Assembly (NCBI GenBank): GCA_964487115.1
Contig: CAZAPD010000030.1
Location: 1 to 44,124, forward strand
Length of the DNA: 44,124 nucleotides
Direction of reading: 5' to 3'
DNA from: an uncultured Thermococci archaeon
GTDB taxonomy: Archaea > Methanobacteriota_B > Thermococci > Thermococcales > Thermococcaceae
In this document: one piece after another, positions 10,587 to 41,521 of the stretch
Layout: every line of letters begins with the position of its first letter
How positions within the stretch are numbered: the stretch's first letter is position 1
Made by a program: the position numbers and the translations under genes
Notes under the pieces: generated by a model
Seen by the model: the letters and a program-made list of their open reading frames with translations, nothing else
What the model was told of the DNA's origin: nothing
The model's database searches: none

Positions 10587-10604
10587 ATCCCTCCCCTCTA
10601 CAAT

Positions 10605-12227: not shown

Positions 12228-12228
12228 A

Positions 12229-12924: not shown

Positions 12925-12929
12925 ATTCC

Positions 12930-13388
12930 TCACCCTATTTTGAATATCAATGATTTCTGTTTACCATCTGCTAATACTACTACGATTTTGTGGTATCCTG
13001 TAGATAACAGGGTAACAACTTGAATTTCACCGATATCATATGGCTGTAACTTATCTGAACCCGGATTATCAAGATTGGTGAATGTTAGATTTGCTGGGGG
13101 TATGAGATTACCATCTATAAACACGACAACTGAATTGTTATTGAAGGTAAAAGGTACTTTTCCAATATTTCGAACATAGAATATATATGCCCCCCCACTT
13201 ACAGGAATATTCTCGGGATCATTTATTATCGCGAAATTTACCCTCAGATTATATGCTAAGTCCTTCCCACGCAGGGTTATCCCGTCAGAAAGATCCTGTG
13301 TAACCATATATAGCCCACCAGCCACCATGCCTGCAATGAGCAATGATGCTATAAAGAGCACCAATTCTGATACTACTGAACTTGCCAT
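12930..13388 (-). CDS. flaG: Archaellum stator protein ArlG (FlaG)
   Basis: MASSVVSELVLFIASLLIAGMVAG; FAIINDP; YVRNIG; position in the cluster. Confidence 0.93.
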   Translation of the reverse strand: MASSVVSELVLFIASLLIAGMVAGGLYMVTQDLSDGITLRGKDLAYNLRVNFAIINDPENIPVSGGAYIFYVRNIGKVPFTFNNNSVVVFIDGNLIPPANLTFTNLDNPGSDKLQPYDIGEIQVVTLLSTGYHKIVVVLADGKQKSLIFKIG

Positions 13389-13390
13389 GG

Positions 13391-13903
13391 TTACCCCTCC
13401 ACCGGACAGTACCAAGCACTTACGAGTAGTTTAGGCCATCCAACGGTTATGTTGCCTACCCATTCCCAGTTGATTTTTAGATTACAGCCTGTTTCTGTAT
13501 TTATTACGAGGGAGTGCACTAAAGTATCCTTTGGAACATTTTGAACTGTCACGAGGATGACTTCTCCCGGCAGGAGATACGATTCATTTTGAATATCAAC
13601 TACACCAGCTGTTGTTACCAAATTCCCGTCATAGATAAAGCTCCATTCCTTTGGTGATAGTGTAGTACCCTCATTTGTGACATTAAATGTGATGTTGTAT
13701 AAGGAAATCCCGGAGATTGTTGAATAGTTGTAGAGGTCACCTTCCAACAATGAAGTTTTTGCCTTTAAGAATGCGTTGTTGTAATCTGAAGTCGCCTCCT
13801 TAACGTATCCAAATGCATTTTCTGTAGCTACATAAAGTATGCCAATCGAGAGTAATGTGGCAGTGAATAATATTGCAAATGTTGCTGAAACACTGAATCC
13901 CAT
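13391..13903 (-). CDS. flaF: Archaellum stator protein ArlF (FlaF)
   Basis: MGFSVSATFAILF; VTNEGTTL; YLLPGE; INTETG. Confidence 0.92.
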   Translation of the reverse strand: MGFSVSATFAILFTATLLSIGILYVATENAFGYVKEATSDYNNAFLKAKTSLLEGDLYNYSTISGISLYNITFNVTNEGTTLSPKEWSFIYDGNLVTTAGVVDIQNESYLLPGEVILVTVQNVPKDTLVHSLVINTETGCNLKINWEWVGNITVGWPKLLVSAWYCPVEG

Positions 13904-13921
13904 GGGAATCCCCTGAACATT

Positions 13922-14779
13922 TTAAACTCCATAAACCTCCTCCAATACCCGGTTGATCACCTTCATCTCCCTTTCAATTGAGTCCAAGATTTCACGAGTT
14001 ATCTTGACTCCTCTGAGTCTCTCTATGAAGAGCAGTGAAATTAAATGATCCTGTATAGTCAATTTATCTTCGGGTCTCCAGTTGGGCTCTCTATGGTGTG
14101 GTTTTGTTCCATTTGCATACTTGAGCATAGTATTCAGGACATCTTCTGATATCCATCCAATTTCGTAGTAAAATTCAAGTACTTGTTCTAAATTCTGCAT
14201 GCCCACTCTATCTATGAGGAAACCGAGCCATTTTAGGGCTATTAGAGTAGATGCCATATCTTGGGGTATTTTCTCCAGTCTGGCTTTCCCATTGGATGAT
14301 GCATAAGGAACAATCAAGCTCTCTCTAATCTCAGGAGGAATTTCTAATCCTTTTTCCATAGGCTTCTCCCCCTTAACAGCCTCAACAGCAGTTTCAACTC
14401 CATGTTCGGGAGCTTTAACATTCTCAATTAACTCGGAGGTAGAAAGCTGGGTTTCTTGTGGATACTGGGTTGTCGTGGTCTCTGGGCCACTATATTCTTT
14501 TCCTTTTCTCCCTTTTCTCTCTTCTTTTTGCTCTAATAGTAAGCTCCTTATCTCCTCAAGATATCTGCCTATTTCTTCTACTCTCTTGTCCAGGTTTATA
14601 AGACGGGTAACTTGGCCTGAATATGTTTGAATAACCCGGTCTATTATTTTATCAAGTTGTTCTGGACTTAGGATGTCCTTTTTGTTCAGGAGCTTTTCTT
14701 TTAAGTCATCTATAAGGACATTGGGGACTTTTCCCTTGAGTTTTTTGAGCCTCTCATCGATCTCGATCTCTGTAATCAT
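13922..14779 (-). CDS. flaD: Archaellum accessory protein ArlD/E (FlaD/E)
   Basis: C-terminal FlaD/E domain ALKWLGFLIDRVG...LEFYYEIGWIS...KLTIQDHLISLLFIERLRG; ATGA overlap with arlC. Confidence 0.93.
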   Translation of the reverse strand: MITEIEIDERLKKLKGKVPNVLIDDLKEKLLNKKDILSPEQLDKIIDRVIQTYSGQVTRLINLDKRVEEIGRYLEEIRSLLLEQKEERKGRKGKEYSGPETTTTQYPQETQLSTSELIENVKAPEHGVETAVEAVKGEKPMEKGLEIPPEIRESLIVPYASSNGKARLEKIPQDMASTLIALKWLGFLIDRVGMQNLEQVLEFYYEIGWISEDVLNTMLKYANGTKPHHREPNWRPEDKLTIQDHLISLLFIERLRGVKITREILDSIEREMKVINRVLEEVYGV

Positions 14780-15294
14780 AACTCTCCCTCCTCAAGGACA
14801 TCATATATAAGCTCATCAATGTTGATGCCATGCATAGCGAGCAATCTCAGATCTGACTTTATTTGGGTAATCTCAGTCCTTAGCTCCTCGACCTGTTTGG
14901 AGAGATTGTGGATTTCATTGACAAGTGGATTGTCTTTTTCCTGATCCTTGAATGGATTAACTTCCTGTGATACAACTTCATACAGCATCATAACATCTTT
15001 GATGGTTTTGTTGAGTTTTTCCATTTCCTCTCTAAGCTCTTGAATCTGAGATTTCAAGGTATCAATACTAACTTTTATCCTTGGGATGTCATTTTCTATC
15101 TCATTAATCCTCGTCATAACTTGAGTTAGTAGCTCCTCTTCTTCTTTCTTTTTCTCATTTTGTTCTGTACTTTCGCTTGTTTCTTCATTTACATTCTCCA
15201 ATTCGTCTAATTTGATTATTTCCACGTTGTTATCCTCTTTCACCTCTTCCTCCTTTTTTTTCTTGAATTTGTTTTTGAGGTATGAGAAGGACAT
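14776..15294 (-). CDS. flaC: Archaellum accessory protein ArlC (FlaC)
   Basis: Coiled coil plus IKDVMMLYEVVSQEVNPF signature. Confidence 0.92.
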   Translation of the reverse strand: MSFSYLKNKFKKKKEEEVKEDNNVEIIKLDELENVNEETSESTEQNEKKKEEEELLTQVMTRINEIENDIPRIKVSIDTLKSQIQELREEMEKLNKTIKDVMMLYEVVSQEVNPFKDQEKDNPLVNEIHNLSKQVEELRTEITQIKSDLRLLAMHGINIDELIYDVLEEGEL

Positions 15295-15364
15295 CTCTGT
15301 TCCCTCCAGCTTGAATTAAGAGTAAAAAGAAAGGCTGTGGAAAAATGCAAATAAGTTAAAGACG

Positions 15365-16024
15365 TCACTTGAGATCTACTATCTTGTCGGTGTCACTGAG
15401 ACCATAGGCCGTTGGAGTAACAACCTTGGCATATCCGGGTGCTCCAAACTCTGGAACAACCTTGATTGTTATCGGGGTTCTGGGTTTAACACCGCCAAAG
15501 ACTGCAGTGAGGTTGACTGTGAGCAGGGCTATGTCGCCGGTAGTCAATGTTGGAATGGTTCCTCCGAGAGAGTTATCAGCGTCCTGAACTATAAGAATTC
15601 CAAAGTGGGTACTGTCGACTAAGCTACTGTTCCAGGCTGTAGAGGTTGTGTCGAACATGTTACCACTTATTGTAGCCTTTGCATTTCCGTACGAAAGAAC
15701 AACCTGTTTCTGTCCGTCATCTAAATACACCTTTGTCTGGTTGAGGTCAATTGGATTACTTCCCGCGTTGAGGGAGACTTGTATCGTCATCAGGGTTAAG
15801 TTGTTTGAACTTGGAGCATAGCCGGTGATAGCATCAATCTGGATACCACTTGAAACTTCTTGGGTTGTCTGCCTGCCTGTGCTCTCAGCTCTCTGTTGCA
15901 GATATCCGCTGGTGTTTATTAGGACTGCTGCTGCTACTGCCGCTACCAGCACCATCGCTATAAATACTATTAAGGTACCAATTCCAATCGCACCTCTCTT
16001 CTTCTTTTTTAAAACAAATCCCAT
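15365..16024 (-). CDS. flaB: Archaellin ArlB (FlaB)
   Basis: Class III signal [42 protein letters not shown]-terminal [18 protein letters not shown]. Confidence 0.97.
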
Positions 16025-20553: not shown

Positions 20554-21276
20554 TTAATATATTCTATCAGGCGGAATTAGTATTGTGGGGGTTCTTATTT
20601 GGAGTACTGTTGGTTTGAACTCACGGGATATTCCTTTTATTATTGCAATGTTTTCAATAAACTCATTTTCTTTCAGGATTCCTTGAGTTATTAAGACGTA
20701 ATCACTAATGCTAACCATCCATGAATGAAGGTCGTTGGGGATACTATCCCGGTTAACAATAAGAATATCCCAAAAATCGAAGCCTTTTTTCACTAAATCC
20801 TCCCCTGCATACAAACGTGCCATGAACAGCCTTTTCATAAGCTCTCTACCAAATCTTTCATATAAGGTACTCAGTGTAACAAATGCATGGACAACTCTCC
20901 TATTACCTAAGCCATAATCGTTAACTATCTCTTTTTTGATTTCAACATATTTTGGTATGAAAGTGTTCTCATCCACCTCTCCTACACTATAAACAAAATC
21001 ATAAGGTGGATTTTCCTTGAATATGTGGATAACTGCCAGATTGCCGGTGTTTCCTTCTTTGATAACATCTATACCTGCTGACTTTAACCTTGAGCAGAAC
21101 TTTCTAAATGGAAGTGCAATGTTACTTATTATAGCAAATCCCCCATCCTCTATTTCCTCTTTCACTAGTTTAACTCCAACCTTCCAACCAAGGGAATACT
21201 GATTGTAGGATAACAATAGGATTCCTGCAGGGATGATTTCTCCCAAATAATCTCTTATACTCCTTGGCATAACCAT
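20554..21276 (-). CDS. Hypothetical protein, probable degenerate KaiC/RAD55 (RecA-fold) domain
   Basis: IIPAGILLLSY without a Walker A; RLKSAGIDVIKEGNTGNLAVIHIF; SISDYVLI, a KaiC-like pattern. GAGGTG RBS favours the start at 21276. Confidence 0.6.
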   Translation of the reverse strand: MVMPRSIRDYLGEIIPAGILLLSYNQYSLGWKVGVKLVKEEIEDGGFAIISNIALPFRKFCSRLKSAGIDVIKEGNTGNLAVIHIFKENPPYDFVYSVGEVDENTFIPKYVEIKKEIVNDYGLGNRRVVHAFVTLSTLYERFGRELMKRLFMARLYAGEDLVKKGFDFWDILIVNRDSIPNDLHSWMVSISDYVLITQGILKENEFIENIAIIKGISREFKPTVLQIRTPTILIPPDRIY

Positions 21277-21586
21277 ACTAAACACCTCATGACCTTTAAC
21301 AGACTCTCAATTATATAAGTTTTGTTACTAAAGTGTGATCATGAAGAAATGATAATTTAGTGAGAATACAACATCTATTTCTGCAAAACTCAGCCAACAA
21401 TATTGTTGAAAATACTGACGAGCTGAAAGAGCAAAATAGGTTGTGATCTAAAACAACAGGGATTTAATTCCCGAGTGACATTTCAAAATTTCTCTCATCA
21501 GTATTTTAGGACGCCTTGATGGATGGGACACTGCAAGAATATAACAGAATGGCAAAGCCTGCTAAGGGATAATTCTCAAAAGATAC

Positions 21587-21850: not shown

Positions 21851-22492
21851 ATGTTTTTCAAACCAGATGATGCTGAAGCCAGAGGTATTGGTATTATTGA
21901 TGAGCTTATTGAATTAGTCGGTCTCCTTGAAGGAGGTAGTATGGCCGGCATTATAACCACAGATGCTCTCTCTCAAGTGGTTCTTCAGTATTCCACAATA
22001 GCAAACGCCCTTAACTCTGAAGTTCCAGTCTATTATCTGGCACCTACCAACAGCTTTTCTTTAAAGCTTCTATCAAAGCTGACAGATAGAAGAGATGTTC
22101 TTTTGGGTAGAGTATACAGCATGGATGACCTGGCGACTGCATTGAAAACCGTTCAGGATGATTCTCTTGTTTTTGTTTCAAATTTCTCGGTTCTTATCAA
22201 TATAAAATCTGAGGATATGCTGATTTTAAGAAAGATTGTCGATGATAAAAATCTGATGTTAGTGCTTTCCCACAATACTCTTGAGCTGAATGAGCTGGAT
22301 TTAACTGGTGAATTCAAGCGTTTATTCATAATCCCGGAGCTGTTTGAGTTGCTCATGGTAATGAGGACAAACTCCTATCGTGGTCACTATCGGCTGAATC
22401 TGAGCATTCTGAAAGTACCCTCTGAGTTCATAGGGAATATAGGAGAACACAGCATCCCGATAGACAGCAAAGCTAAGCTCTTTCTTAGGTGA
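21851..22492 (+). CDS. Hypothetical protein, probable degenerate RecA/RadB-like fold
   Basis: GIGIIDELIELVGLLEGGSMAGI resembles the RecA-family N-terminus but has no GxxxxGK[ST]; VYYL..NSFS..L and RVYSMDDL resemble RadB-type elements. Confidence 0.55.
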   Translation: MFFKPDDAEARGIGIIDELIELVGLLEGGSMAGIITTDALSQVVLQYSTIANALNSEVPVYYLAPTNSFSLKLLSKLTDRRDVLLGRVYSMDDLATALKTVQDDSLVFVSNFSVLINIKSEDMLILRKIVDDKNLMLVLSHNTLELNELDLTGEFKRLFIIPELFELLMVMRTNSYRGHYRLNLSILKVPSEFIGNIGEHSIPIDSKAKLFLR

Positions 22493-25359: not shown

Positions 25360-25780
25360 ACCTTCAGGGCTTTCTTCCGCATATTGAGATAAGCGGAACC
25401 TCTGTTTTTATTCCCGTTTATTGGGTCTGATATTTCTCCCTGAGAATGCAAGGGGTGTGCGCATGAAAGCAGGAAATTGGGTGCTCTAATAAAGCTTTTC
25501 TATGCCTTAGGTAAACATCATGCTCGGGGACAAAAGCATGAAAGATTCTTCATATTTTCTGGTTCTTTTGTATATCCTGCAACTTTAAGGGCGAATGTAA
25601 AACGTATTCCAAATGTTACCTCCTCTTCAAAGGTATGTCCAAGTTTGTTTTGTATATTTCTTCATGTGATCGAAGAATTTTTTACTTAGCAGAATGTCAA
25701 TTTGAATTTAGAAAAGTATATTTAGGGGTTTGTAGCGAACAGGTAATATGAAATGCGTATCATAAATGGAGGGGAATGTA

Positions 25781-28700
25781 ATGGAAAATTCCTTCACAAA
25801 GAAGGTGTTTGTTCTGGTTGTGTCCCTTTTAATGCTCCAGTTCCCTCTGGCTTTTGCGGTTTCTCTTCCCCATTCGATTTTTTATGGGGCAAAAGAAACA
25901 ATTGACATAGAAAACAGTATAGTGCCTGCATACATCTCGCAGGTGAATTATACCGATGAAGACCTGAGAAAGGAGATTGAGCTTAAATACTCCTATAATC
26001 TCGATGAGTTCATAGCGTTGCTCAATAATGATCCGATTGAGATTTTCTGGTATATACGTAACAATTTTGACTATGAGCCATACTATGGAAGCCTAAAAGG
26101 TCCTGTTGGAACATTTCTCCAGAGAGGCGGCAATGACCTTGATTTAGCATCCTTGCTCGTGGAGATTTACAGGCAGCTTGGAATTCCGGCGAGATACGTA
26201 AGAGGCAACATAAGATTGTCAGAAAGTCAGCTGAGAAACTGGTTCGGGATTAAAAATGTTGAGAGGGTTCTGAAAACCGGTCTTATACCCTATGAAAAAA
26301 CTTCTGACGGCTATATCGTTGAACATTTCTGGGTTGAGGCTTATCTTGATGGCAAATGGGTCCCGCTGGATCCTTCTTTTAAGGAGTACGAATATGTGCC
26401 ACCTGAGCTCAACATCACACAGATGGGGGAAGGTTTTGCTGAGAGCGTTTTTAATAACTCGGTGTCCGGTAGTGATTGGTATCTCCTGAGAAAGGACGTG
26501 GAGGGCTCGCCTGTTCTTTCGGATGATTATCTAAACAATGTGAGCGAGGACATTATCAAAACTCTGGGGGTTAGGTATATAGGAAACACCTCCAAACAGA
26601 GTATTTACAGAACTCTGAAGGGATTGTCAGACTTCAAAAGTGCTATTTTTGGCTCATGGAGGATAATTGAAAGTAGAGAGGGTTTTGGAAAGCTACCGTT
26701 TAATGTTAGCAATGTCTTAGCAGAATTCCCAGAAATTCCCTCAAAATTCAAATATAAAGTCAGGATTGAACTTCCGGGACAGGATGTAAATACAACCCTG
26801 ATCTTGGGCAATGTTAGCACGAAGAGGATCACCCTTGGCTGGCTTCCGGCCACTGAGAACGACAAAAAAGAAGTGGAGAAATATGAGGATATAACGGATA
26901 TTCCGATAGACAGCGTTAATTTCACCCCTGTCTTGATGCTCGATGGAGTTCCGGTTGCTAAAGGCCGGATTTCACATCTTGGAGAAAAGGCAAATCTAAC
27001 GGTCACAATGCTCCTTGGAAACCGTGTTCTCTATGTGGAAGACACTCCTGTTACCGCTGGGGGATATTATGCGGTCAGTATAGATGCACTGAGGGTGAGT
27101 CAGCAGTTCCTGAACTATCGTTTGAACAGGCTTAGAATTACAAGCTTCATGCTCGAAAGAGGCTTTTCCAACGTTACGACAGACGAAGTTATAGGAGAGA
27201 TGCTGAATTTGGCAGGTCTAACCTACTGGTATGAGCTCGATAAATATGCCGATGAAGTAGCATTCCGTTTAGGAATAAGGTGGATCAGGGTTCCTTCCGT
27301 TATAGTGCTTGGAACTGCATATAAGGTTGAAGAGGATAAGTTGCGATTTATTGGGATGTTTGTGGATGTTCAGAAAGACCTCTATCTGCCACTTTCAGAG
27401 AATAACAATAAAACGAGAGAAAGGGGTTTTATGATTAGCACTGGGAGGAGAGGTTCTGAGCTTGAGGCTTATGTGCTCAGACAATACTTTAATGCCCCTG
27501 CAATTTCCACTGCAACGATATTTGATTTGGCCTACGAGCTCACCATCCCGATATACCATGTTAATTCCTCAAATGTTAATTCTGTCCTTCCTCTGCTGAA
27601 TATAAGTCAAGAAGATAAGAACAAAATACTTGGTTATGTCAATAGTGGCTATGAAGTTTATGTACCCAGGGATAATGTGGTTATAAATGGATGGGTTGGA
27701 ACTGGCTACTACGTTGTCGATCCTGAGACAGGTGCGATGGCATACATGATAAGCGGTGGCATCAGAGGGGGCTTATCATTAACTGAATGGATGCACTCCC
27801 TAATGCAGGATGCAACTATGGAATTATTCAAGTGTCTGGGATTCATGAAGAGTATGGGTAAAGCGCTTGCTGAAAAAGTTTCTGATGCAGTTTCTGTATT
27901 TGTGAGTGCTGTCCTGAGTACAGTTGAAACCGTGGCATCGTGTCTTGAGGCACATCCCTGTGAATGCTCCCAGTACATAAAACAAACTGTTGTTAGCGTT
28001 GTTGTCGATGGAATTATGACAACATTGACGATAGGTATAACGGTAACAGGTACGGGGATTTTGGTACTCTTCCTTAAACTGTTGGCCTTTACAGGGGAGG
28101 GTACTATTTCATACGTCATAGGAGACATAACCAAGAAACTGATAAACTGGTTTTTGGGCTTTAGCAACACACTGAGAAACTGTCCAGCTCCAGATGTTGT
28201 AATAAGACAACCAAGAACCATACTTAAAGTTTCCAAACAGGTCATGGACTATGTTAGAGCATTCAGCATATGCGTCGTTTCACAAAACGGGCTCCGGGCG
28301 TATAGGGAAGTTGATTGGGAAATCCCGCGATGGGGCAATCCACCCCTTATCAAATATGGGATAAGGGGAATAAGAATCCGTTCAGGGATTATTTTTGCAT
28401 CTATGCAGTCTCAGTGTGACTCTGTTTATGTCATGATAGATCCTGCATATGTGCCTATGAATATCAAGCTTAGAGGAGGTATCGTTGAAGTTCCGGTCAA
28501 GGTCAATATAAAGATGGAAACCTTCAAAGGCGTTGAAACATTCACAAAAACTGGCTATATACGGTATAAATACGTGGTTAAAAAAGGAGATCTGATCCAG
28601 GTTTTAGGTCTCTCACAAACCATAACTTATACTGAAGGCGGAAGCGGTTCCACATACTTCACATTCATAAACAGGGCGGATAAAACCGTCAGAATATATG

Positions 28701-31700
28701 TCAGAAAGGATGGAATACCCGGGCTGAAAGTTGAATATCCAAAGAGAGTACCCCCACATTCCCAGTTTACTGTCAAGGTAACATCCTCAGGACTCTCAAA
28801 AGGACGTTATTCAGGAGGAATAACAGTTATCGGAGAAATTCCAACCACTGATGAGTGGGGGTATAAAGAGGATAGTGCTTATGGTCTCCTGTGGGTTGAG
28901 GTCAGAGGGAAAAATGGAAAACCACCCGGCCATGGAGATCCCAACGCAAGACCTGAGAATCCCGGAAATGACCATCCTGATGACAGTTTAGATGTTCCAA
29001 GGCTAACCCTCACAAAGGAGCTCGACTTCTATACACTCCTCAGGGAGGGCCTGAAGAAAAACATTAGTGAAGCTGTTGATCTCCTTGAACTTGCCAGTTA
29101 CCAAGCGATGCTCTCTAATTTGAGTATCGAAAATATAAGCGCATACAGGAGTCTCGCTTCTCAAGTGACGAAGCTTTACATCAGATTATCTTCGAATCTG
29201 AAGTTCCTCAATGATCTGATGGAAAAAGCCCCAGCTGTTGCAATCTTTAGGAAAGGATTTTACTCGGGAGCAGAGAACATTCTGAAAAAGGCTAAAATCC
29301 CCTATAAGCTTGTTGACGAGAATTTTGATCCGGTTAAACTGGTAAAATATCAGAAAATCCTTATACTGCCAAGTGGATCCCTGTTTGGAATGCAGAGCGA
29401 TGCCTTTAAGGAGAAACTCAAACTTTACTTAGAGAAGGGGGGAGACATCATAGTTTTTGATCAGCAATACGGTGACCACTTCTCCGTGATTCCGGGAGGT
29501 TTGAATGGTTATGGCTGGGCTCAGGATCAGATGTGTCATGCAAACTCTCTCTATGCCGCTCAGGATCATCCCATACTCTCAACCGTGCAGTCAAATCTCA
29601 TAACCGAGGATGTTGACGGATACTTCGAAACTTATCCTCCCAACTCCATAGTTCTCATGAGAAGAACCAAAAACGATTTCCCGGCTATGGTGCTTTACAG
29701 CTATGGAAAAGGGCATGTCTTAGCAACCACGCTGTATTCTGACTGGAAGTCCCAGAACTATGTCTCTACCTTTATGATGAAAATTCTGAGAGATGCAATT
29801 GCGTACTTTGAGCTGAATGAGGATATCTATGAAATAGGTGTCGGCAGGGCATGGTACGGGCTGGTACTCGGGGGACCATATACAATACCCATCAACGTTA
29901 CAAACCCAACAAACGTGACTGCAGATAGCGTTAAATTCAGGATTCTGACTCCTTCTGGAAACCTCAGATCTGAGATAACTCTAAATGAGACGATCCAACC
30001 GGGTGAAACGAAAACTGTTAATGTCACCCTCTCGGCAAAGGACTTCGGTTCCGTTGTGCTTGGGATATGGACTGTGGATTATACCCTCCTCTCGGGTGGG
30101 AATAAAATCTATACAAAGTATGATGCAAAGGGCATTTCCATGAATATTTACTACAACAGTGATGAGTACTTCAACTACAAAGGCGGCAACAAATATCTTA
30201 TATGGGCAACGGCAGAAAAAGAAAAGGTTCTGTTTGGTGAGAAGGTCAGAATAACATTCCACATCATAAACAAGGACAGCAAAACCCTGACAGGACAGCT
30301 TGGAATAGGGGATCATATAAACGGGTGGCGTGTACTTGAGGTCAAGAATGTCACAGTCGCCCCGGGAGAATACAAAAAGTACTATTTTGAAGTGTATCCC
30401 TATGTGGATGCAGGCAATTATCCCGGTCTCACATACTATATGGGGTTATACACTGACAAATCACCTTATGAAGGTGCAGGTAACTTCTGGGATGCACGGT
30501 TTAGTGCTGAAAAGGGATTTTACATAATACGTCCAAATCTAAAGCTTGCCTCCAGCATTGATAAGAAGGAATATGCTCCCGGAGAAACCATAACCGTGCA
30601 TGTTAATATAACAAATAATGATGAGATTGACTGGCGGCTCATGTTGATAACTATCATGAAGTACAACAGGCAAACTGTTAGAACTGTATCCCAAGCAGTC
30701 ACGATTCCAAAGCTCTCCACAATAAGTGTCCCCATATCAATCAAGGTGCCTGAAGATGCGGAGAGGGGGTACTACACCCTGATAACAACTTTCGGTGACA
30801 TGTATGGCAAAACAAACGGTCTGGAGGACTTCTATCTTCCGACATCCAATCTGTATTTCACCAGAAAAGTCTCCAATATTGAGATAACCCCTGAATTTAC
30901 GAAACCTCTTGCGGTCAGGATAAAGGCGAGGATAACGAACAATATCTCGATAGTGAAACCTAAACTGCTCGTTACGGCAGATGAGTTCTGGCAGAAAGGA
31001 CACAACACCCATAAGTATGAATTTAACTTAACATTTACCAATTGGGAGACTGAGGTTACAGTGCCTCTGAACGAAGACATCTTTGGGAAATATCAGATTT
31101 CCTACGTTCTTTATGAGGGCGGTGTTGTGGCCACTTCGGGATCAGCGTATCTGAACAGAAGAGTCATCATAACACCGAAAATTATGTTCTCTGGAAGGGC
31201 ATTAAGCAATCTAACACTAAGTGTAAATCTCTCAAATCCGGGCTTTTTGAACGAAGATTTCAGTCTCAATATAACGATCCCAGCACTGAACTACACCACC
31301 ATGATTCCGGTTTCGCTTCTGCCCAGAGGAGGAAAGGAAATCAATGCAACTATTGGCATTCCGAATCTTCCACCGGGACTTTACCCCATAATAATCCGTG
31401 CTCAGAAGGCCAGGGGATTCATTGAATCCCGTGCCTACTTCAGGATTATGGAGTCCAATGTTCAGGGAATTATCTATCCCCAGACATATTCTGCAGGAGA
31501 AAATGCCCTTGCGCTCTTGGAGAATAAGGGAGGTGTTCCGACAACCGTTCGGGGCAATCTCTCGATAATCCACGACAGCTCGGTGCTCTCAATCAGGAAT
31601 TTCACATTCATCCTAAATCCGGGAGAAAACAGAACTGTTGGAGTTCCAATTCCTCTCAACACACCCCGGGGCAGCATGATAGCTCTCAATTTCACCGATT

Positions 31701-34700
31701 TAAAGAGAGGCATAACGAGGCACTACACGAGACCCCTCTATCTCAGTGGATTCAAAGTAAAGGCAGTTCATGATAATGAAAGCTACGCTCTTGACAATCT
31801 CACCGTTACCCTAATTAATGAGGGAGGCATCACGGATACTGTCAATGTGACTATATCACTTAGACAGTATTTCTGGGAAAAGATCTTCGGAGAATGGAAG
31901 TACTACAACATTACCCTCGCTCCGGGAGAGAGCGTGAACGTCACTCTTACTGTTCCAAACATCATCTCAGGCAGGTACATCCTCTATGTAACTGCCTCTG
32001 GAAAACAGGGGACATCATATTACTGGGATTATCTTAATGTCATCGGACCTAATATCAGCGTGCACGTTGATAAAACCTCATACGTCGCAGGGGATAATGT
32101 GACGGTGAGGATAACTAACAGTGGAGGAGGCCATACAAAGCTAAATGTAGCCGCTCAACTCAGGGGCAACCTAACATTCTGGGACCTTGGTAGCACTTCA
32201 CTGGATATTGGAAAGCTTGAGAGCAAAGAAGTTGTCTTTACAATACCAAAGAGTGTTCCAACGGGTAGTTATACCCTTATAGTGCGCCATAAGTTTGGAA
32301 GCTACCGCAAGAATGTCACGGTTAAAGGACTTGAGCTGAGTATCAGCCTGCAAAAGGAGAGCTATGATGTGGATGAGAATATATCTGTGAGGATTGAGAA
32401 CACAGGAGGTACGGATGCTAACCTTGAAGTGCAGTATAGAATCTCATCTCAAACCGGAACTGTTAATGTTACGGTTCCAAAGGGTGCATCATCAACACTT
32501 GAGCTTGAGATACCTGATGGTCTTCCATCTGGGAGATATAGCTTGTATCTCAGGATTCATGATAGATTCACCGGCTTGTGGATGGAGAAGCATTTCACCA
32601 TACAAATTAGAGGAGCTGAGCTTGAAATAATTCCCGTTAAAACTGATCTTGAACCAAGAGAAGGACTTTCCATACTGTTCCTGAACAAAGGAGGAATAGA
32701 TCTCAATCTGAATACAACGCTCACTATAGCAGGCTCTACCGTGAGCCAGCAGTTTGTACTTCCAAAAGGAAGAAACTCAACAAGAACCTTTAGCCTGCCG
32801 CCTCTTAAAAGCGGAGAATACAGAGTGGAGATAATCGCAGTTGATAGTAACAGCAACAGGAGGTTCTTCCGTGCAATTTCAATCTCGATAAGCAGCTTCA
32901 AAATAAACGCTACCCTGAACAGAAAGAGCTTTTCGATAGGAGACTCACTGATGATTGCACTAACCAGCGGCACAAACGTGGATGCAAATCTAAGCTATAG
33001 GCTTGACATGGTGGATGAGGAAGGAAACACCTTCCATCTCACGGATGGCAATTTAAGGCTGTCCGCCATGGGAACGTCATCAATAACCGCAACGATTGAC
33101 AAGGTGGCGAGAGGCAACTATACTCTAACCCTCAGAATGACAGAGATGACTACAGGGGAGAATTTCGTGGTTACATGGACCATATACATAGACGGAGCAT
33201 GGGGAAAAATCAGTATTGACATGCCGTCGTTAGCATTTGTCGGCTCGCTTCCAGTAGCCGTGAATGTGACGGGCAATACTGGAGGAACGCTCAGAATCCT
33301 TGGAAATCCCTACATTGAATCACATCCAGTGAAGCTCATAGGAATTGAATCTGATGGAGGCCTGTGGATAGCTTTCTCCACCCATCTGGGATACTATCAT
33401 GATGGAAAGCTTGAGCTCTTTGGGTATCCCAACGGAACTATAATCGAAGGAGGATATGAAGGCATGTCCGCAGCAATGACGAGCAGTGAGGACCGCATAT
33501 GGATAGCCTCGTGGAATAAAATCCTTGAGTTCAACAAGAATACTCACGAGTGGAAGATTTACATCACCGCGGACATACCCGGCTTCCCAGCCACAGTAAA
33601 TTGGGAATGGGGAGAGGAGCAGGTTAGCATCTTCAGCCTTGCATACTACAACAGTTCATTATGGGTCGGAACAGACAATGCAGGTCTGGTCAGGATAAAT
33701 CCAGAGACTATGACTACAATCACCATTTACAACTCGACGAACAGCCCGCTAACCACCGATTACATAATGGCACTGAAAGTGAATGGAAGTGACCTATGGG
33801 CGCTTGGTGATGGCCTGTGGAAAATCGGAAACAAATGGACTCACTACTCTCCGGAGGATTTCAACCTGACATGGATCGATGCATTTGATGTCTTTGATAA
33901 TCAACTCTGGGTTGGTGGTGAAAACAACTCCATTATCTCCGTATGTATGCTCGGTGGGGAATGCCTCAGGGATTTACCCTCATGGAGGGTTTCCAATATT
34001 GAACACGATAACGAGTCCATATGGATCATATACTCACCTTGGGATCAGATTACGGTGAGCAGGTACTATTTGGCCAATAAAACGCGGGTTGACTATTCCG
34101 GAGATACATTCTGGGGCGGTCTGGTGGAGGTGGAAAACAACATCTATGCCTCAAGTTATGGACTCCTTATAGGAGGTATGGGAGGCAAGCTGGTAAGATT
34201 CGGACCCTCGGGATATGTACAGGATATTGCATATCATGATGGAATTGCATACATTCTAACTGAAAACGGGGAGATTTCAATTTACAACCTCAGCAGCGGT
34301 AAATGGAAATTCATAATCAACGAGACGTTTGCAAATAGCAACAGGATAGCCTATGCTGGGGGCAGACTGTTTATGACGATATGGTCAGGCTTGATTGAAT
34401 ACGACCTGAGCAGTGGCTCTGTTACCATATACAGTTCATCAAACTCTCCGTTCAGCAGTTCAAGAAATCCAACAGGACTTGCAGGAGATGATGGGGTGTT
34501 ATACATTGGCACCACTGATGGCCTTGTGGTTCTGAATCTTACATCAAACAGCTTCACACTCTACTACCCACCCAATTTCGGAACAGCCGTGAGGGATGTG
34601 TGGCTCAATGGTGACGAGCTGTGGATTGCAGGGGACAATGGTGTGGGGATATATGACATCTCATCCAATACGTATAGGTCCTATTTGAGGGGTGTATCCT

Positions 34701-37700
34701 CATGGCTCGTGAGGGCATATGGAGATGAAGTATGGGCAGCATTCTACCAAAATTCAGATTATGCTCTCTGGCATTACAACAGAGAAAGCGGAATGAGCGA
34801 GATATACAACTCGACAAACGGATTAACAGGCGAGTATATTCAGGATATGGCAAGGTTCGGGGGGCTTGTGTTTGTTACTTATAACTGGGGAAGCAATGTA
34901 TCAGTTTTTGATGGAAACGCATGGAGAACAATATCTATACCCGCACAGTCTGTTGAGTCTTCTGAAAAAGGCGCACTCCTTGGCGGTAATATATTTGCCA
35001 TATATTCAATGGATGTATTTGAATTCCCCGTTGCTCAGGGGAGAAACGAGTTCAATATAACCCTTAGAAGACCCGGAGAAGCGTCATACACCTTCAGACT
35101 GCTGCTCGGAAATCAGGTTCTCGATGAGGAGATACGGGAGCTGAATGTTTATGAGCATGCAATATCATTTGATCTGAGAACATCGAAGTATCTCTACAAG
35201 AAGGGTGAGAACGCGACTTTTGAAGTCATCATAAGGAATGATGCACCTCTGGATGATATCGCCAGTTACAGACTGCTCCTTGGAGATGCTGCCTATGAAG
35301 ATACAATAACTGTTGGAGCAGGTCAGGAGGTGCATCTAAGCTTTGTTATAAAAGCTGAGTCAAGCTTTAACGCCACGCTTGTTGTGAATGGAGTATCCAG
35401 GGTGGTTCCAATAAGCGTTATTGAACCGAAAGCAGAGATAACACTAAGCGCTCCAGATGTGGTCGGGTATGGGAAGCCTTTCAATGTTACCCTGACGATA
35501 ACAAATACAGGAATTGTGCCAGTTGATCTCTCAGTGGATTTTGCTGGAAACAGAAATATTACCGTAGAACCGGGAGATTCTGCTGTTATTTCTCAGGAAA
35601 TGACAATAACGAACGACACTACACTTAGGGCTGTAATTTCCGGTGATTTGAACAGGACGCTGGAGAAGAAGATTATCATGGGAGAAAAGATTAACATATT
35701 CTTTGGAAACTATACGGTGATTCCCGGACATTCAGAACTTCCGTTTACAGTTGAAAACCGTGGGATCCTCGATTCAAACTTTGTCCTTGTAGTTAAAAAC
35801 GGGAGCTGGTCATGGCAGAGCAACCTCTCAGTTCCAGCAGGAGCAAAGCTTAACCTTACGCTACCCGTTGATCTGAATGAAGGGAGCTACACATTCGTAT
35901 ACAGAAGCAAATTTGGAACTGGAAGCTTTTACGTGGAGGTTATAGGAGAGAAGCTCTCGGTTTCATATGGGTTTGATGGAGAAGAGATAGCACTCAACGT
36001 AACAAACCTCGCACCCCTTGACTTCAGTGGAACGCTGAGAATCGATTCTTCAATACTCTCAACAGTCACGAATATAAGTGTGACCGCAGGTTCATGGAAA
36101 CTCCTCACATTTCCGTCTGGAAATCTATCTCCCGGAACATACAACCTCACGCTGAGAATAGATAGAAATGGCAGACTCGTGCTTTTGAAAACTCTAACGA
36201 TTAAAGCGGAGCCGAGGATAATCCTGATTATTGGGGGCATAACAAACGAGCAGAAGATTGGCGATATCATAAATGCAACTGTTACAGTGAGGAACAGTGG
36301 AACCGCATGGAAAAGGGATCTGCTTGTGTTTGAAGTTCCCGGAATCTACAGGAAGGAGGTGCAGATGAAAGTTGGCATCGGTGAGGAGAAAGTCTTCAAC
36401 TTTACATTTGCCCTGCCTATGGATCTGCCGAGCAAAATACTGAGAGCAACTGCAAGATTTGGCAACGTCACAGCTGAGAGGAGCTTCCGTCTCAGAGGTG
36501 TCAACTTAAGCGTTAATCTAACAACCGATAAGACATGGTACTATGAGGATGAGAATGTTACTGCCACGATAACGTTGGTCAACCATGAGAACATAACGCT
36601 GAAAGGCAACATTAGCCTATCATGTTCCTCCTTCAACAGTACCCGGAGTTTTGAGCTGGGAGAGGGGGAGAAGGAATTCACGTTCAGGTTCCCAGTATGT
36701 TCAAGAATCTTCTACCAGATAAGTTTAAGCACGGGACGTATCATCTACATAAATTCACGGCTGGTTCAGATTCGGGAGAGAAGTGCAGAGGTTAGTGTTA
36801 TCACAGATAAAGACCGCTATTCCATAGGTGACAATATGACGGTTTATATCTACTCCACTAAGCCCGTTACTGTGGCTTTGGCTGTCTTTGACAATGTAAC
36901 TCTTGTAAATGTCACAAATACAGCATCCTTAAAGTTTAAGATTCCCGATGTAGAAAGCGGTACGTACAGGATTTATTATTCCTATGGCAATGAAACAAAG
37001 AGCAGGGAGTTTGATGTGGTATCTCCTGCTGCAAAAGTCCTCGACTTTGAGCTTAAGAAAAGGCTCTTTGAGCCGGGTGAAAACGTGAGCTTCACTGCTC
37101 TTGTGCATGCAGATGAAGATGTTGTTGGGAAGGTAGTGGTATGGTTGTACCAAGGAAGCTCCCTCATAGACTACTACTTGAAGCCGCTAAATCTAACCGC
37201 AGGAGACAACTACATTAATGTCACTACAGATATAGTAGTTCCGAATATCGGCTCATATACCCTGCTCTATGCCTTCTATCGCGGCTTGAACTCAACAGTT
37301 ATCGCCTCAGGAAGCCAGATCCTCCAGACAGAAGGAGCGTTGATAACATCAATGACAACGGATAAGGAGGAATATACTGAGGCTGAGAACATCAAACTGA
37401 GGCTGGTGATAACCGGAACTCCAGGAACGTATGTGCTCAGGATAAAGGGAGTAAGTGATGTGCTGGAGAAGAATATCACAGTAGGTGGAAGTACAGAGGT
37501 TAATCTGACTCTTCCTGCAAAGTACTTCGACATAAGAATTATCGCCAGCCTGCTCATGGGCGAGTATTCAACATCCAAAGAAATTGCTGTAAAGGTGACA
37601 AACCTACCTCCTGTGGCTCGCTTCAAAGTTCAGGGCAACATGAGTGTTAATTCAGAGCTAACATTTGATGCATCTCTCAGCTCTGATCCCGGTGAGGACA

Positions 37701-38215
37701 GCTTAACCTATTCATGGGACTTTGGAGATGGAACCTCACTAACCGTTTCAGCACCGGTTGTTACACACACATACACCCAAGCTGGCAACTACACTGTAAT
37801 ACTGACTGTCAGCGATGGAGATGGTGGAACCGATATAGCAATTCTCGTACTTGAAATTTCTAAAGCTGGAGTTATCAAGAACATAACAGTAATAAACAGG
37901 GAAAGCGCCTTCAGAAGAATAACGACACTGGCTCAGATGTGGACTGCGAGATACTTCTACTACAGGACAGAATATGAGGAGCTTCTGGCAAGGGCAAAGG
38001 AGCTGGAGGTCGATAATGAGACCCTATCATCAATAATTCAACTCCATGAAGAAGCTGAGATTCTTATGACCGAAGGATGGAGGGTCAAAAATATAGAGAG
38101 TGTCCTCGGGGTTTGGATGAAGGCCGGCGTCGTTCCGAATCTTATCAAGGTAAGAAGGGCATATCTGCTCGAAAAGAAGACTGTGGACAGGCTTAGAAAG
38201 CTTTTAGGTCTTTGA
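25781..38215 (+). CDS. Giant (~4,144 aa) multidomain surface protein: transglutaminase-like N-terminus, hydrophobic helical segment, GATase1-like domain, Ig-like repeats, beta-propellers, PKD, pyrolysin-type C-terminal tail
   Basis: Uninterrupted 12.4-kb ORF; GGAGGG RBS; signal peptide; YEPYYGSLKG..GGNDLDLASLL..IPARYVRG..EHFWVEAY..WVPLDPS; LWVGTDNAGL propeller blades; PPVARF..FDAS.SSDP..YSWDFGDG..HTYTQAGNYTVILTVSD (PKD); many N-x-S/T sequons. Confidence 0.93.
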   Translation: MENSFTKKVFVLVVSLLMLQFPLAFAVSLPHSIFYGAKETIDIENSIVPAYISQVNYTDEDLRKEIELKYSYNLDEFIALLNNDPIEIFWYIRNNFDYEPYYGSLKGPVGTFLQRGGNDLDLASLLVEIYRQLGIPARYVRGNIRLSESQLRNWFGIKNVERVLKTGLIPYEKTSDGYIVEHFWVEAYLDGKWVPLDPSFKEYEYVPPELNITQMGEGFAESVFNNSVSGSDWYLLRKDVEGSPVLSDDYLNNVSEDIIKTLGVRYIGNTSKQSIYRTLKGLSDFKSAIFGSWRIIESREGFGKLPFNVSNVLAEFPEIPSKFKYKVRIELPGQDVNTTLILGNVSTKRITLGWLPATENDKKEVEKYEDITDIPIDSVNFTPVLMLDGVPVAKGRISHLGEKANLTVTMLLGNRVLYVEDTPVTAGGYYAVSIDALRVSQQFLNYRLNRLRITSFMLERGFSNVTTDEVIGEMLNLAGLTYWYELDKYADEVAFRLGIRWIRVPSVIVLGTAYKVEEDKLRFIGMFVDVQKDLYLPLSENNNKTRERGFMISTGRRGSELEAYVLRQYFNAPAISTATIFDLAYELTIPIYHVNSSNVNSVLPLLNISQEDKNKILGYVNSGYEVYVPRDNVVINGWVGTGYYVVDPETGAMAYMISGGIRGGLSLTEWMHSLMQDATMELFKCLGFMKSMGKALAEKVSDAVSVFVSAVLSTVETVASCLEAHPCECSQYIKQTVVSVVVDGIMTTLTIGITVTGTGILVLFLKLLAFTGEGTISYVIGDITKKLINWFLGFSNTLRNCPAPDVVIRQPRTILKVSKQVMDYVRAFSICVVSQNGLRAYREVDWEIPRWGNPPLIKYGIRGIRIRSGIIFASMQSQCDSVYVMIDPAYVPMNIKLRGGIVEVPVKVNIKMETFKGVETFTKTGYIRYKYVVKKGDLIQVLGLSQTITYTEGGSGSTYFTFINRADKTVRIYVRKDGIPGLKVEYPKRVPPHSQFTVKVTSSGLSKGRYSGGITVIGEIPTTDEWGYKEDSAYGLLWVEVRGKNGKPPGHGDPNARPENPGNDHPDDSLDVPRLTLTKELDFYTLLREGLKKNISEAVDLLELASYQAMLSNLSIENISAYRSLASQVTKLYIRLSSNLKFLNDLMEKAPAVAIFRKGFYSGAENILKKAKIPYKLVDENFDPVKLVKYQKILILPSGSLFGMQSDAFKEKLKLYLEKGGDIIVFDQQYGDHFSVIPGGLNGYGWAQDQMCHANSLYAAQDHPILSTVQSNLITEDVDGYFETYPPNSIVLMRRTKNDFPAMVLYSYGKGHVLATTLYSDWKSQNYVSTFMMKILRDAIAYFELNEDIYEIGVGRAWYGLVLGGPYTIPINVTNPTNVTADSVKFRILTPSGNLRSEITLNETIQPGETKTVNVTLSAKDFGSVVLGIWTVDYTLLSGGNKIYTKYDAKGISMNIYYNSDEYFNYKGGNKYLIWATAEKEKVLFGEKVRITFHIINKDSKTLTGQLGIGDHINGWRVLEVKNVTVAPGEYKKYYFEVYPYVDAGNYPGLTYYMGLYTDKSPYEGAGNFWDARFSAEKGFYIIRPNLKLASSIDKKEYAPGETITVHVNITNNDEIDWRLMLITIMKYNRQTVRTVSQAVTIPKLSTISVPISIKVPEDAERGYYTLITTFGDMYGKTNGLEDFYLPTSNLYFTRKVSNIEITPEFTKPLAVRIKARITNNISIVKPKLLVTADEFWQKGHNTHKYEFNLTFTNWETEVTVPLNEDIFGKYQISYVLYEGGVVATSGSAYLNRRVIITPKIMFSGRALSNLTLSVNLSNPGFLNEDFSLNITIPALNYTTMIPVSLLPRGGKEINATIGIPNLPPGLYPIIIRAQKARGFIESRAYFRIMESNVQGIIYPQTYSAGENALALLENKGGVPTTVRGNLSIIHDSSVLSIRNFTFILNPGENRTVGVPIPLNTPRGSMIALNFTDLKRGITRHYTRPLYLSGFKVKAVHDNESYALDNLTVTLINEGGITDTVNVTISLRQYFWEKIFGEWKYYNITLAPGESVNVTLTVPNIISGRYILYVTASGKQGTSYYWDYLNVIGPNISVHVDKTSYVAGDNVTVRITNSGGGHTKLNVAAQLRGNLTFWDLGSTSLDIGKLESKEVVFTIPKSVPTGSYTLIVRHKFGSYRKNVTVKGLELSISLQKESYDVDENISVRIENTGGTDANLEVQYRISSQTGTVNVTVPKGASSTLELEIPDGLPSGRYSLYLRIHDRFTGLWMEKHFTIQIRGAELEIIPVKTDLEPREGLSILFLNKGGIDLNLNTTLTIAGSTVSQQFVLPKGRNSTRTFSLPPLKSGEYRVEIIAVDSNSNRRFFRAISISISSFKINATLNRKSFSIGDSLMIALTSGTNVDANLSYRLDMVDEEGNTFHLTDGNLRLSAMGTSSITATIDKVARGNYTLTLRMTEMTTGENFVVTWTIYIDGAWGKISIDMPSLAFVGSLPVAVNVTGNTGGTLRILGNPYIESHPVKLIGIESDGGLWIAFSTHLGYYHDGKLELFGYPNGTIIEGGYEGMSAAMTSSEDRIWIASWNKILEFNKNTHEWKIYITADIPGFPATVNWEWGEEQVSIFSLAYYNSSLWVGTDNAGLVRINPETMTTITIYNSTNSPLTTDYIMALKVNGSDLWALGDGLWKIGNKWTHYSPEDFNLTWIDAFDVFDNQLWVGGENNSIISVCMLGGECLRDLPSWRVSNIEHDNESIWIIYSPWDQITVSRYYLANKTRVDYSGDTFWGGLVEVENNIYASSYGLLIGGMGGKLVRFGPSGYVQDIAYHDGIAYILTENGEISIYNLSSGKWKFIINETFANSNRIAYAGGRLFMTIWSGLIEYDLSSGSVTIYSSSNSPFSSSRNPTGLAGDDGVLYIGTTDGLVVLNLTSNSFTLYYPPNFGTAVRDVWLNGDELWIAGDNGVGIYDISSNTYRSYLRGVSSWLVRAYGDEVWAAFYQNSDYALWHYNRESGMSEIYNSTNGLTGEYIQDMARFGGLVFVTYNWGSNVSVFDGNAWRTISIPAQSVESSEKGALLGGNIFAIYSMDVFEFPVAQGRNEFNITLRRPGEASYTFRLLLGNQVLDEEIRELNVYEHAISFDLRTSKYLYKKGENATFEVIIRNDAPLDDIASYRLLLGDAAYEDTITVGAGQEVHLSFVIKAESSFNATLVVNGVSRVVPISVIEPKAEITLSAPDVVGYGKPFNVTLTITNTGIVPVDLSVDFAGNRNITVEPGDSAVISQEMTITNDTTLRAVISGDLNRTLEKKIIMGEKINIFFGNYTVIPGHSELPFTVENRGILDSNFVLVVKNGSWSWQSNLSVPAGAKLNLTLPVDLNEGSYTFVYRSKFGTGSFYVEVIGEKLSVSYGFDGEEIALNVTNLAPLDFSGTLRIDSSILSTVTNISVTAGSWKLLTFPSGNLSPGTYNLTLRIDRNGRLVLLKTLTIKAEPRIILIIGGITNEQKIGDIINATVTVRNSGTAWKRDLLVFEVPGIYRKEVQMKVGIGEEKVFNFTFALPMDLPSKILRATARFGNVTAERSFRLRGVNLSVNLTTDKTWYYEDENVTATITLVNHENITLKGNISLSCSSFNSTRSFELGEGEKEFTFRFPVCSRIFYQISLSTGRIIYINSRLVQIRERSAEVSVITDKDRYSIGDNMTVYIYSTKPVTVALAVFDNVTLVNVTNTASLKFKIPDVESGTYRIYYSYGNETKSREFDVVSPAAKVLDFELKKRLFEPGENVSFTALVHADEDVVGKVVVWLYQGSSLIDYYLKPLNLTAGDNYINVTTDIVVPNIGSYTLLYAFYRGLNSTVIASGSQILQTEGALITSMTTDKEEYTEAENIKLRLVITGTPGTYVLRIKGVSDVLEKNITVGGSTEVNLTLPAKYFDIRIIASLLMGEYSTSKEIAVKVTNLPPVARFKVQGNMSVNSELTFDASLSSDPGEDSLTYSWDFGDGTSLTVSAPVVTHTYTQAGNYTVILTVSDGDGGTDIAILVLEISKAGVIKNITVINRESAFRRITTLAQMWTARYFYYRTEYEELLARAKELEVDNETLSSIIQLHEEAEILMTEGWRVKNIESVLGVWMKAGVVPNLIKVRRAYLLEKKTVDRLRKLLGL

Positions 38216-40369: not shown

Positions 40370-41521
40370 ATGAGAAAATTTGCAGTGCCCCTGATGCTCT
40401 TCTTGCTGCTCGTTCCCCTCGTTTCAGGAGCAACCCTGAACTGTTCAGATAAAGTTCACGGCAACGAGGTCATTTGTCACCTCGAAGGCTCCGGCAAGGG
40501 AAGACTCTACTTAAGGAGCGTTGACGGAGTTTCCTCCGGCGGCTATACTATAATCATCACGGACGCAACCGGTCGCGAGAGGATTTCTTCGAGCCAAGAG
40601 CAGGAAACCTTTGTCCTCCCAGCTAACATAACGTTTTATCCGGAGAACATCCTAAACGACGTAATTGACGGATACCTCACCTTCCAGCCCTACTGGGTAG
40701 TTCTCAACAAGTGGCACTCTTTTGTCTTCGAGTTTCAGGAGAATGATGGAATCTCTGGGACGTTTAAAGTCGAGCTTTACCTCGAAGGGAAGCCCGAGTG
40801 GGGGGAGGTCAAAGAGGACTTCATGGCATCCCTCCTGGCCTCTCTGGTGGTTGGGCTGGTTGTTTTGGCAGGCTTCGGTCTGATCTGTCTCCTCAAGAAC
40901 AGGGGGCCTGGTTTAAGGGGTACGATGTTTGCCCTCGCATTTGGAGTGTTTTCATTATTTTTCACGCTGAACTTCCTTGGGCCGGCCCTCTTCACGTTCC
41001 TCTACTACAACTTCGGGAGCGGAACGGGCCTTTGGGGAGACGTCATGTTCGGCTGGGGGATCTGGGTTCTGAGTGTAATGCTTTCGGTTTACCTCACCGT
41101 GTACCTCCTCATAACGCCGGAACTGGAAGCGTTGGCTTATTCAAAGCCCCTCAAGGCCCTGAAGAACCAAAAACTCGGGCTCTGTTCCGGCCTTGGGTGG
41201 ATTCCCTTTATGATGGTCGCGTATCTCCAGATAAACTCGACTCCCCTCATCATCGGTCTCGTGGCAGTTTCCGTAGTTCTGGGCATGTTTTCTCAGGATA
41301 TTCCTGAAAGGATTAAACCGGAGGGGGTTCTCTTCATCAACCTCACCCTCGTTGGCGTGCTCTGGTTTGCACTTCGTCCGGACTTACCTTTCCTTGGAAT
41401 ATTGGTGATTCTCTTCATGCTGGTTTACTCGATTCAGAGGAAGTGCCTTTCCAAGTTTGCCCTGGAAAAAGAGCGCCTCGTTAGGGAGGTCGAAAACAGG
41501 GTAAAGATGATTGGGGGATAA
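40370..41521 (+). CDS. Hypothetical membrane protein (signal peptide, extracellular domain, ~7 TM helices)
   Basis: MRKFAVPLMLFLLLVPLVSG; soluble N-domain with a Cys pair; several hydrophobic segments; charged C-terminal helix. Confidence 0.8.
   Translation: MRKFAVPLMLFLLLVPLVSGATLNCSDKVHGNEVICHLEGSGKGRLYLRSVDGVSSGGYTIIITDATGRERISSSQEQETFVLPANITFYPENILNDVIDGYLTFQPYWVVLNKWHSFVFEFQENDGISGTFKVELYLEGKPEWGEVKEDFMASLLASLVVGLVVLAGFGLICLLKNRGPGLRGTMFALAFGVFSLFFTLNFLGPALFTFLYYNFGSGTGLWGDVMFGWGIWVLSVMLSVYLTVYLLITPELEALAYSKPLKALKNQKLGLCSGLGWIPFMMVAYLQINSTPLIIGLVAVSVVLGMFSQDIPERIKPEGVLFINLTLVGVLWFALRPDLPFLGILVILFMLVYSIQRKCLSKFALEKERLVREVENRVKMIGG

Follow-up and report, generated by a model that had tools for sequence, protein, structure and literature searches.

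The locus considered here raises the question whether a giant archaeal protein, in which a transglutaminase-like scaffold ends in a Gly-rich motif and gives way to hydrophobic helices, carries a toxin-like cargo at an internal position. A first-pass annotation of this DNA had taken the motif as a scaffold/cargo boundary and the helices (aa ~670-810) as a membrane-inserting cargo, and it is these two proposals that we have followed up.

Layout of the giant protein

The window (the whole stretch of DNA that was analysed, 44,124 nucleotides) is contig C30 of an archaeal genome of 2.06 Mb that is 96% complete, and it also encodes an archaellum operon and an archaeal PEP carboxylase; near relatives of the giant protein bear the database label Thermococcus sp. 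The giant ORF is flanked by bioY on one side and by the PEP carboxylase gene on the other. Elsewhere in the window, the archaellum operon (6928-16024) comprises one flagellin, FlaC, D/E, F, G, H, I and J and is followed by a BatD-like gene; the ORFs 1932-3314, 20554-21285 and 21851-22492 are without a family, and between 40000 and 44124 the GC content climbs from ~0.43 to 0.50; in this part, two ORFs without a Pfam family (40370-41521 and 41524-42168) precede an S9 peptidase. The domains of the giant follow one another in this order:

25766..38215, + strand: giant ORF, 4,149 aa (database form 4,144 aa, start five codons later)
25781..25858, + strand: likely Sec signal peptide with basic residues, hydrophobic core and A-F-A end (Kyte-Doolittle peak 2.53 at aa 14-32)
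26039..26374, + strand: transglutaminase-like core, aa 92-203 (PF01841, E 1e-14)
26654..27772, + strand: second scaffold domain, aa ~297-669, alpha/beta, conserved family-wide, no Pfam family
27689..27772, + strand: junction motif WxGxGY..DPxTG..Y.ISGG..GG, last beta-hairpin of the scaffold and boundary to variable cargo
27773..28195, + strand: hypervariable helical hydrophobic segment, aa 670-810 (Cys732 and Cys806 positions in 9/9 aligned giants)
28196..28915, + strand: two Ig-like domains (PapD/ASH or cadherin-like), fast-evolving (6fvi: Z 11.8, rmsd 2.5, 111 aligned)
28961..28984, + strand: second junction PGNDHPDD, after an acidic/Pro/Gly linker (PG.D.PDD invariant in 10/10 aligned giants)
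29228..29815, + strand: GATase-like domain of the beta-galactosidase trimerisation type, invariant W.D..C (Cys1257) and R.KN (Atlas feature matches 0.93)
29846..33115, + strand: Ig-like repeat stalk (weak MG2/CARDB/A2M_BRD matches; 32 sequons)
33116..35065, + strand: likely beta-propeller region (weak PorZ propeller matches)
35066..37834, + strand: Ig-like repeats with a terminal PKD domain (aa 3946-4023; PF18911, E 2e-22)
37883..38212, + strand: C-terminal helical domain, likely cell-envelope anchor (tblastn to contig C55, E 6e-14)

Judging from the hydrophobic N-terminus (2.53 on the Kyte-Doolittle scale), the protein likely bears the export signal that belongs to polymorphic toxin systems. 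The helical tail at its other end is presumably of the pyrolysin type; the same tail closes a 1,366-aa signal-peptide protein encoded on another contig of the genome (G000:C55:2199-6299). Pfam and NCBIfam scans of seven pieces of the giant detected no RHS family.

Within the transglutaminase core, Asp124 occupies the position of the catalytic Cys, with the His and Asp retained, and read from its sequence the domain has lost the catalytic Cys. The same holds across 155 related proteins, which have D, A, S, G or E at this position in 120 cases and Cys in none (35 unassigned). An AlphaFold model of aa 32-1060, built from 83 sequences, reached a mean pLDDT of 82, and values in the scaffold, including the second domain, were mostly 81-97 except at aa ~220-290. 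The model matched transglutaminase-like folds among PeiP/PeiW, TglA and LapG (Z 10.7, 10.5, 9.7 and 8.6), with PeiP aligned over 129 residues (Z 10.7, rmsd 2.8), and the sole match in a PDB sequence search was a transglutaminase-like chain (E 0.001).

The scaffold was found in 7/133 genomes of the class and in 4/99 of the high-quality ones, with one copy broken by stops. This copy, in another Thermococcaceae genome (L019, G132:C34:6597-7544 plus flanks), is split by two stop codons. A further scaffold relative lies on a Paraglaciecola plasmid (NZ_CP047657.1:27371-28468), and weaker ones lie on five further plasmids, three of them annotated as RHS/DUF6531 proteins.

The GG junction and the tails of relatives

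The motif GWVGTGYYVVDPETGAMAYMISGGIRGG extends from aa 642 (27689) to aa 669 (27772) of the ORF at 25766-38215, and thus ends exactly where the first-pass annotation had placed it; both helices quoted there do come next, marking the abrupt switch that had been described. In order to analyse whether the motif separates conserved from variable sequence, we searched with aa 32-880 and obtained 6,567 cluster representatives at E <= 0.001, part of which match only the transglutaminase core; among the best 150, alignments mostly end near aa 669. The junction could be located in 145/147 new matches, with tails of at least 60 aa in 139; according to the first-pass annotation, a similar motif closes the conserved part of bacterial transglutaminase-like proteins ahead of variable C-terminal regions, as in polymorphic toxins. 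At the two Gly residues the columns carry 3.4 and 2.7 bits of information, and directly behind them there is a sharp fall to 0.3-0.9 bits. When 147 sequences including 8 giants were compared, the last 150 scaffold residues linked 10,728/10,731 pairs into 1 group, whilst the first 150 tail residues of the same set linked 171 pairs and fell into 75 groups, and a hydrophobic stretch (19-residue Kyte-Doolittle average, KD19, >= 1.8) was present in 82/139 tails versus 0/139 scaffold ends. With family alignments stopping at ~aa 669 and unrelated tails beyond, the proposed scaffold/cargo boundary is strongly supported: on these alignments the GG is almost certainly a true one, and the family shares with polymorphic toxins a conserved N-terminal scaffold followed, past a sharp boundary, by variable cargo. 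In the giant the cargo is indeed internal, as had been suggested, with ~3,340 aa following the segment. The GG motif also offers a precise boundary for mining new toxin tails.

The relatives make clear what such tails can be. We scanned 37 of the 147 for tail domains, picked mostly for long tails: four carry nuclease toxins (Tox-REase-5, AHH twice, WHH/colicin DNase) and one Hint only; four carry wall-lytic domains (M23, NlpC/P60, SLT and M15, the last below the cut-off), one RHS and five others, and 22/37 have no recognisable tail family. The types encountered are therefore short hydrophobic segments, hydrophobic segments joined to a nuclease, wall-lytic enzymes and RHS. All five nuclease/Hint carriers have a hydrophobic stretch directly past the GG (2.14-2.83) and all four wall-enzyme carriers are without one (<= 1.31), a division that would be expected if the stretch served in membrane crossing. 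In a separate group of tails (P0038, P0046, P0093, P0109 and P0062) an alpha/alpha toroid, CBM9, beta-helix or protein-arginine deiminase domain stands at the end, in most cases preceded by a hydrophobic segment.

The genes downstream of the tails were analysed at 82 loci (80 together with L010 and L019), 56 of which show the junction pattern; after removal of 9 as open-ended or duplicate and 7 without a downstream ORF, 40 remained. The next gene encodes at least two TM segments in 14/18 loci with short hydrophobic tails versus 0/22 with other tails (Fisher p = 1e-7, which overstates the case because ORF calls were mechanical and loci are not independent). Scans of 30 downstream proteins identified one CdiI immunity protein (E 2e-21), matched four to other families and left 25 without a match. 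Tails and downstream genes of the relatives pair like toxins and immunity proteins, and the family very probably behaves as polymorphic toxins.

Several of these loci have features of their own. At L010:1267-6859 (G009:C59) a 1,382-aa relative combines a long coiled N-terminal region with a terminal hydrophobic tail, and directly 3' of it lie two similar-looking, immunity-like genes for small membrane proteins. L049 (3967-4233) and L060 have a tail of 31 aa and, 103 bp on, a hydrophobic frame without a clear start, perhaps an orphan cassette or a tail split off by a frameshift. At the short-tail loci L050, L056, L065 and L049, ORFs of 1,000-1,570 aa are found beyond the small TM genes.

The helical segment and its cassette among the giants

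The protein of 4,149 aa has only 12 Cys residues, none of them within aa 32-669. Five of the 12 (Cys690, 726, 732, 734 and 806) had drawn attention to the segment, and at least five Cys in a 141-aa window arose in 6/1000 shuffles. A disulfide between Cys732 and Cys806 is likely, as judged from their conservation. The GRAVY value of aa 670-810 (0.63) is the highest of all non-overlapping 141-aa windows (next 0.33, mean -0.12); since it was attained in 406/1000 shuffles of the same composition, hydrophobicity alone is not beyond chance by this test. The peak 19-residue Kyte-Doolittle average is 2.02 (aa 756-774). Both AlphaFold models render the segment as all-helical at low confidence (pLDDT 47-64 in the 83-sequence model). 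The description of the segment as colicin-like is an interpretation: Foldseek and VIA searches with a single-sequence model of the cargo (pLDDT 48) gave nothing at E <= 0.001 and at best generic helices (Z 7.5), and those with the 1,029-aa model returned lists filled by Ig and transglutaminase folds, from which colicins are absent, a result that is not decisive. An Atlas search with the cargo scored 0.84 at best, and a picornavirus 2B row scored 0.80; either value is at chance level.

In the tail comparison the segment had no detectable homology to any bacterial-type tail, and its own genome (96% complete) holds no orphan cassette. No immunity-like gene is adjacent at any of the three loci in Thermococcales for which both flanks are available (window, L008 and L009), housekeeping genes coming next. 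An antisense ORF of 178 aa (27709-28245, - strand) was considered as a hidden immunity gene and rejected, given internal stops in L008 and L004; it is likely a shadow ORF.

Seven further giants match the whole N-terminal 1,300 aa. Compared with distant giants, identity is 43-56% over aa 431-669, drops to 21-26% over aa 670-810 and 21-27% over the Ig pair, and rises again to 44-75% over aa 1161-1360. There is consequently a second boundary near aa 1066, which the first-pass annotation had missed, and a variable cassette (aa 670-1065) sits between two conserved junctions. At ~20% identity the segment still retains its length, a W past the GG and two Cys positions. The KD19 peak is 2.0-2.1 in the four closest giants, and peak hydrophobicity is only 1.44 and 1.33 in the distant orthologues P0008 and P0009, with 29-38 charged residues; P0019 lacks the Cys732 and Cys806 positions and has a segment rich in Gly, Ala, Thr and Val. 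In a tree of nine giants, from which P0019 was excluded, the deep branch is longest for the cassette (1.57), against 0.30 for the scaffold and 0.16 for the module behind it. The tree of the scaffold and that of the cassette are mutually compatible (AU p 0.13 and 0.057), and a swap at the GG is accordingly not demonstrated among the nine; the module rejects both other trees (p 0.0002 and 0.007). The trees speak for fast divergence of the segment, possibly accompanied by exchange of the N-terminal block as a whole, rather than for a swap at the GG, and this colinear, fast-evolving rather than swapped state counts against the membrane-inserting cargo reading.

The second junction and the GATase-like domain (28961-29815) form a module that no Pfam or NCBIfam family covers; it closes the cassette and opens the ~3,000-aa Ig/propeller stalk. 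The motifs W.D..C, VDG.F and R.KN of the GATase-like domain are common to 10/10 aligned giants, and the domain had no PDB sequence match. Cys1257 is likely unpaired and, as we assume, lies off the canonical GATase nucleophile position; a cutting role for it is a guess. In seven of the ten giants with the second junction, the transglutaminase scaffold precedes it, and the four cassettes that were measured have 241-521 aa; the module is also present in P0019 and P0045. In P0010, P0011 and P0012 it bears unrelated N-terminal modules: a ~230-aa Cys-rich domain in P0010; in P0011 a domain with Zn-PLC and S1/P1 Pfam matches only at E 0.28, the motifs of which we take to resemble such enzymes; and in P0012 DUF6531 and an RHS core that closes with DPxG (aa 910-986), with a ~140-aa Gly/Cys-rich cargo ahead of the second junction. 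TM-like or sorting-type tails end P0009, P0010, P0012 and P0045 (PGF-pre-PGF in P0009 and P0010), so that payload first and anchor last is a recurring layout. Amongst proteins of 2,281-7,261 aa the module was found only in 7 known giants, and amongst those of 525-2,000 aa in 0/2,776 candidates, the latter being weak evidence.

The Ig pair, modelled at pLDDT mostly 73-95, has no N-glycosylation sequons, compared to 14 in aa 32-669 and 32 in aa 1361-2450. Cassettes of six giants hold 7 sequons where 65 are expected; as the GATase-like domain is also without sequons, their avoidance in the cassette is not a specific signal.

Possible function and comparison with known systems

We favour, with not quite even confidence, the reading of the giant as a surface-anchored polymorphic toxin of reversed polarity, the helices past the GG being predicted to insert into the membrane of a contacted cell. 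After Sec export, scaffold and stalk would be glycosylated and the protein anchored on the cell through its C-terminus, with the Cys732-Cys806 disulfide pinning a hydrophobic hairpin that would stay shielded until contact. The co-varying Ig pair may bind the target surface, release could take place at the GG or at PG.DHPDD, possibly via the adjacent Cys domain, and insertion would depolarise or damage the target membrane; the ~3,000-residue stalk would hold the helices off the producer, distance replacing the immunity gene. Insertion of aa 670-810 into a membrane is predicted by analogy with relatives, and to that extent this part of the first-pass annotation is supported; the lack of an adjacent immunity-like gene and the barely hydrophobic segments of two distant orthologues count against it. 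It is possible, if doubtful, that the giants represent an undescribed and mainly archaeal platform of inverted polarity for contact-dependent weapons, in which the module on a C-anchored stalk, its invariant Cys cutting the chain, releases swappable N-terminal payloads and no immunity gene is needed because the payload stays a stalk's length from the producer. The payloads would then comprise, with the same reserve, a pseudo-transglutaminase-capped pore former, RHS-caged cargo, phospholipase/nuclease-like and Cys-rich domains.

The missing immunity gene also speaks for a toxin-derived but non-lethal contact protein, with helices and Ig pair as an allele-specific tip for adhesion, kin recognition or membrane tethering, as do the long adhesin-type stalk and a cassette that diverges at ~5x the rate of the scaffold (1.57 vs 0.30 for the deep branch) and still tracks its tree; self/non-self recognition is moreover among the hypotheses put forward for further hypervariable Ig proteins of Thermococcales (PMC8416519). 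That relatives hold toxin-type cargo and matched downstream genes at the same position, and that P0012 combines an RHS core and its cargo with the same module, makes this somewhat unlikely. A soluble bundle of helices that only links scaffold and stalk, as a relic or as a spacer, and that changes fast under relaxed constraint would suit the weakly hydrophobic, charge-rich segments of P0008 and P0009, the amphipathic character of the helices, the shuffle control for GRAVY and the stop-broken copy in G132; we regard this as distinctly unlikely given that length, two Cys positions and the W past the GG persist at ~20% identity and that the segment is the protein's most hydrophobic window and avoids sequons. 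As for an ordinary anchor in the producer's own membrane, whether a single TM helix or a TM hairpin, the peak KD19 values of the four closest giants (2.0-2.1) would fit, but a single TM is topologically unlikely because the flanks on both sides (aa 32-669 and aa 1361-2450) are sequon-rich, distant orthologues have no TM-grade stretch and several giants already possess a C-terminal TM, all of which renders this explanation very improbable.

Returning to the surface-anchored toxin that we favour, its likeness to known systems is partial in each case. The modelled transglutaminase-like fold resembles those of PeiP/PeiW (pseudomurein endoisopeptidases), TglA and LapG, but unlike in active PeiP/PeiW peptidases the catalytic Cys is missing and the fold spans <5% of the protein. 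Pore-forming colicins and Gly/Ala-rich hydrophobic bacteriocins have amphipathic helices followed by a hydrophobic, hairpin-like stretch. The giant segment shows this order, and relatives with such tails at their ends adjoin small multi-TM genes; it differs from colicins in its ~140 aa, long helices and conserved Cys, with no sequence similarity found and no TM immunity gene at the locus.

VARTIG proteins, as described by Makarova et al. 2021 (PMC8416519), have ~1,000 aa and a varying C-terminal Ig domain, and head islands of small TM genes. Like the giant they are secreted, Ig-rich, hypervariable and patchily distributed proteins of Thermococcales for which toxin and recognition functions are both considered; the giant has PEP carboxylase downstream instead of such an island, the word transglutaminase is absent from PMC8416519, and VARTIG is a different module. 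The portions of PMC13622651 and PMC3387779 consulted contain nothing bearing on the giant protein. In the literature searched (few subscription papers, no supplements) the GG junction, RHS-free tails and second module are not described, their novelty being provisional.

Closest are the toxin systems with an inactive transglutaminase, for which section 19 of Zhang et al. 2012 (PMC3482391) gives a signal peptide, inactive transglutaminase, RHS repeats and C-terminal toxins, and which it calls rare in archaea. The giant shares the signal peptide, a transglutaminase minus catalytic residues and variable cargo, and some of its relatives have the RHS array. It differs from those systems in being archaeal and without RHS, in a ~370-aa second scaffold domain that ends in GG with cargo attached directly, in the internal position of this cargo with a stalk C-terminal of it, and in having no adjacent immunity gene; polymorphic toxin systems in general have a terminal toxin domain and an adjacent immunity gene, neither of which was found here. 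The giant would work like an inactive-transglutaminase polymorphic toxin but lacks three defining features (terminal cargo, RHS and immunity gene); that its segment attacks a foreign membrane is the best single reading, with chances a little under even. Thermococcales are now linked to a large, likely toxin-carrier family (6,567 cluster representatives), and few of the weapons or recognition systems that hyperthermophilic archaea possess have so far been characterised. What is new here is the internal cargo, the second conserved junction and a module shared under unrelated payloads, with the payload placed ahead of a stalk that is likely anchored by its C-terminus, an order opposite to that of classical stalked toxins.
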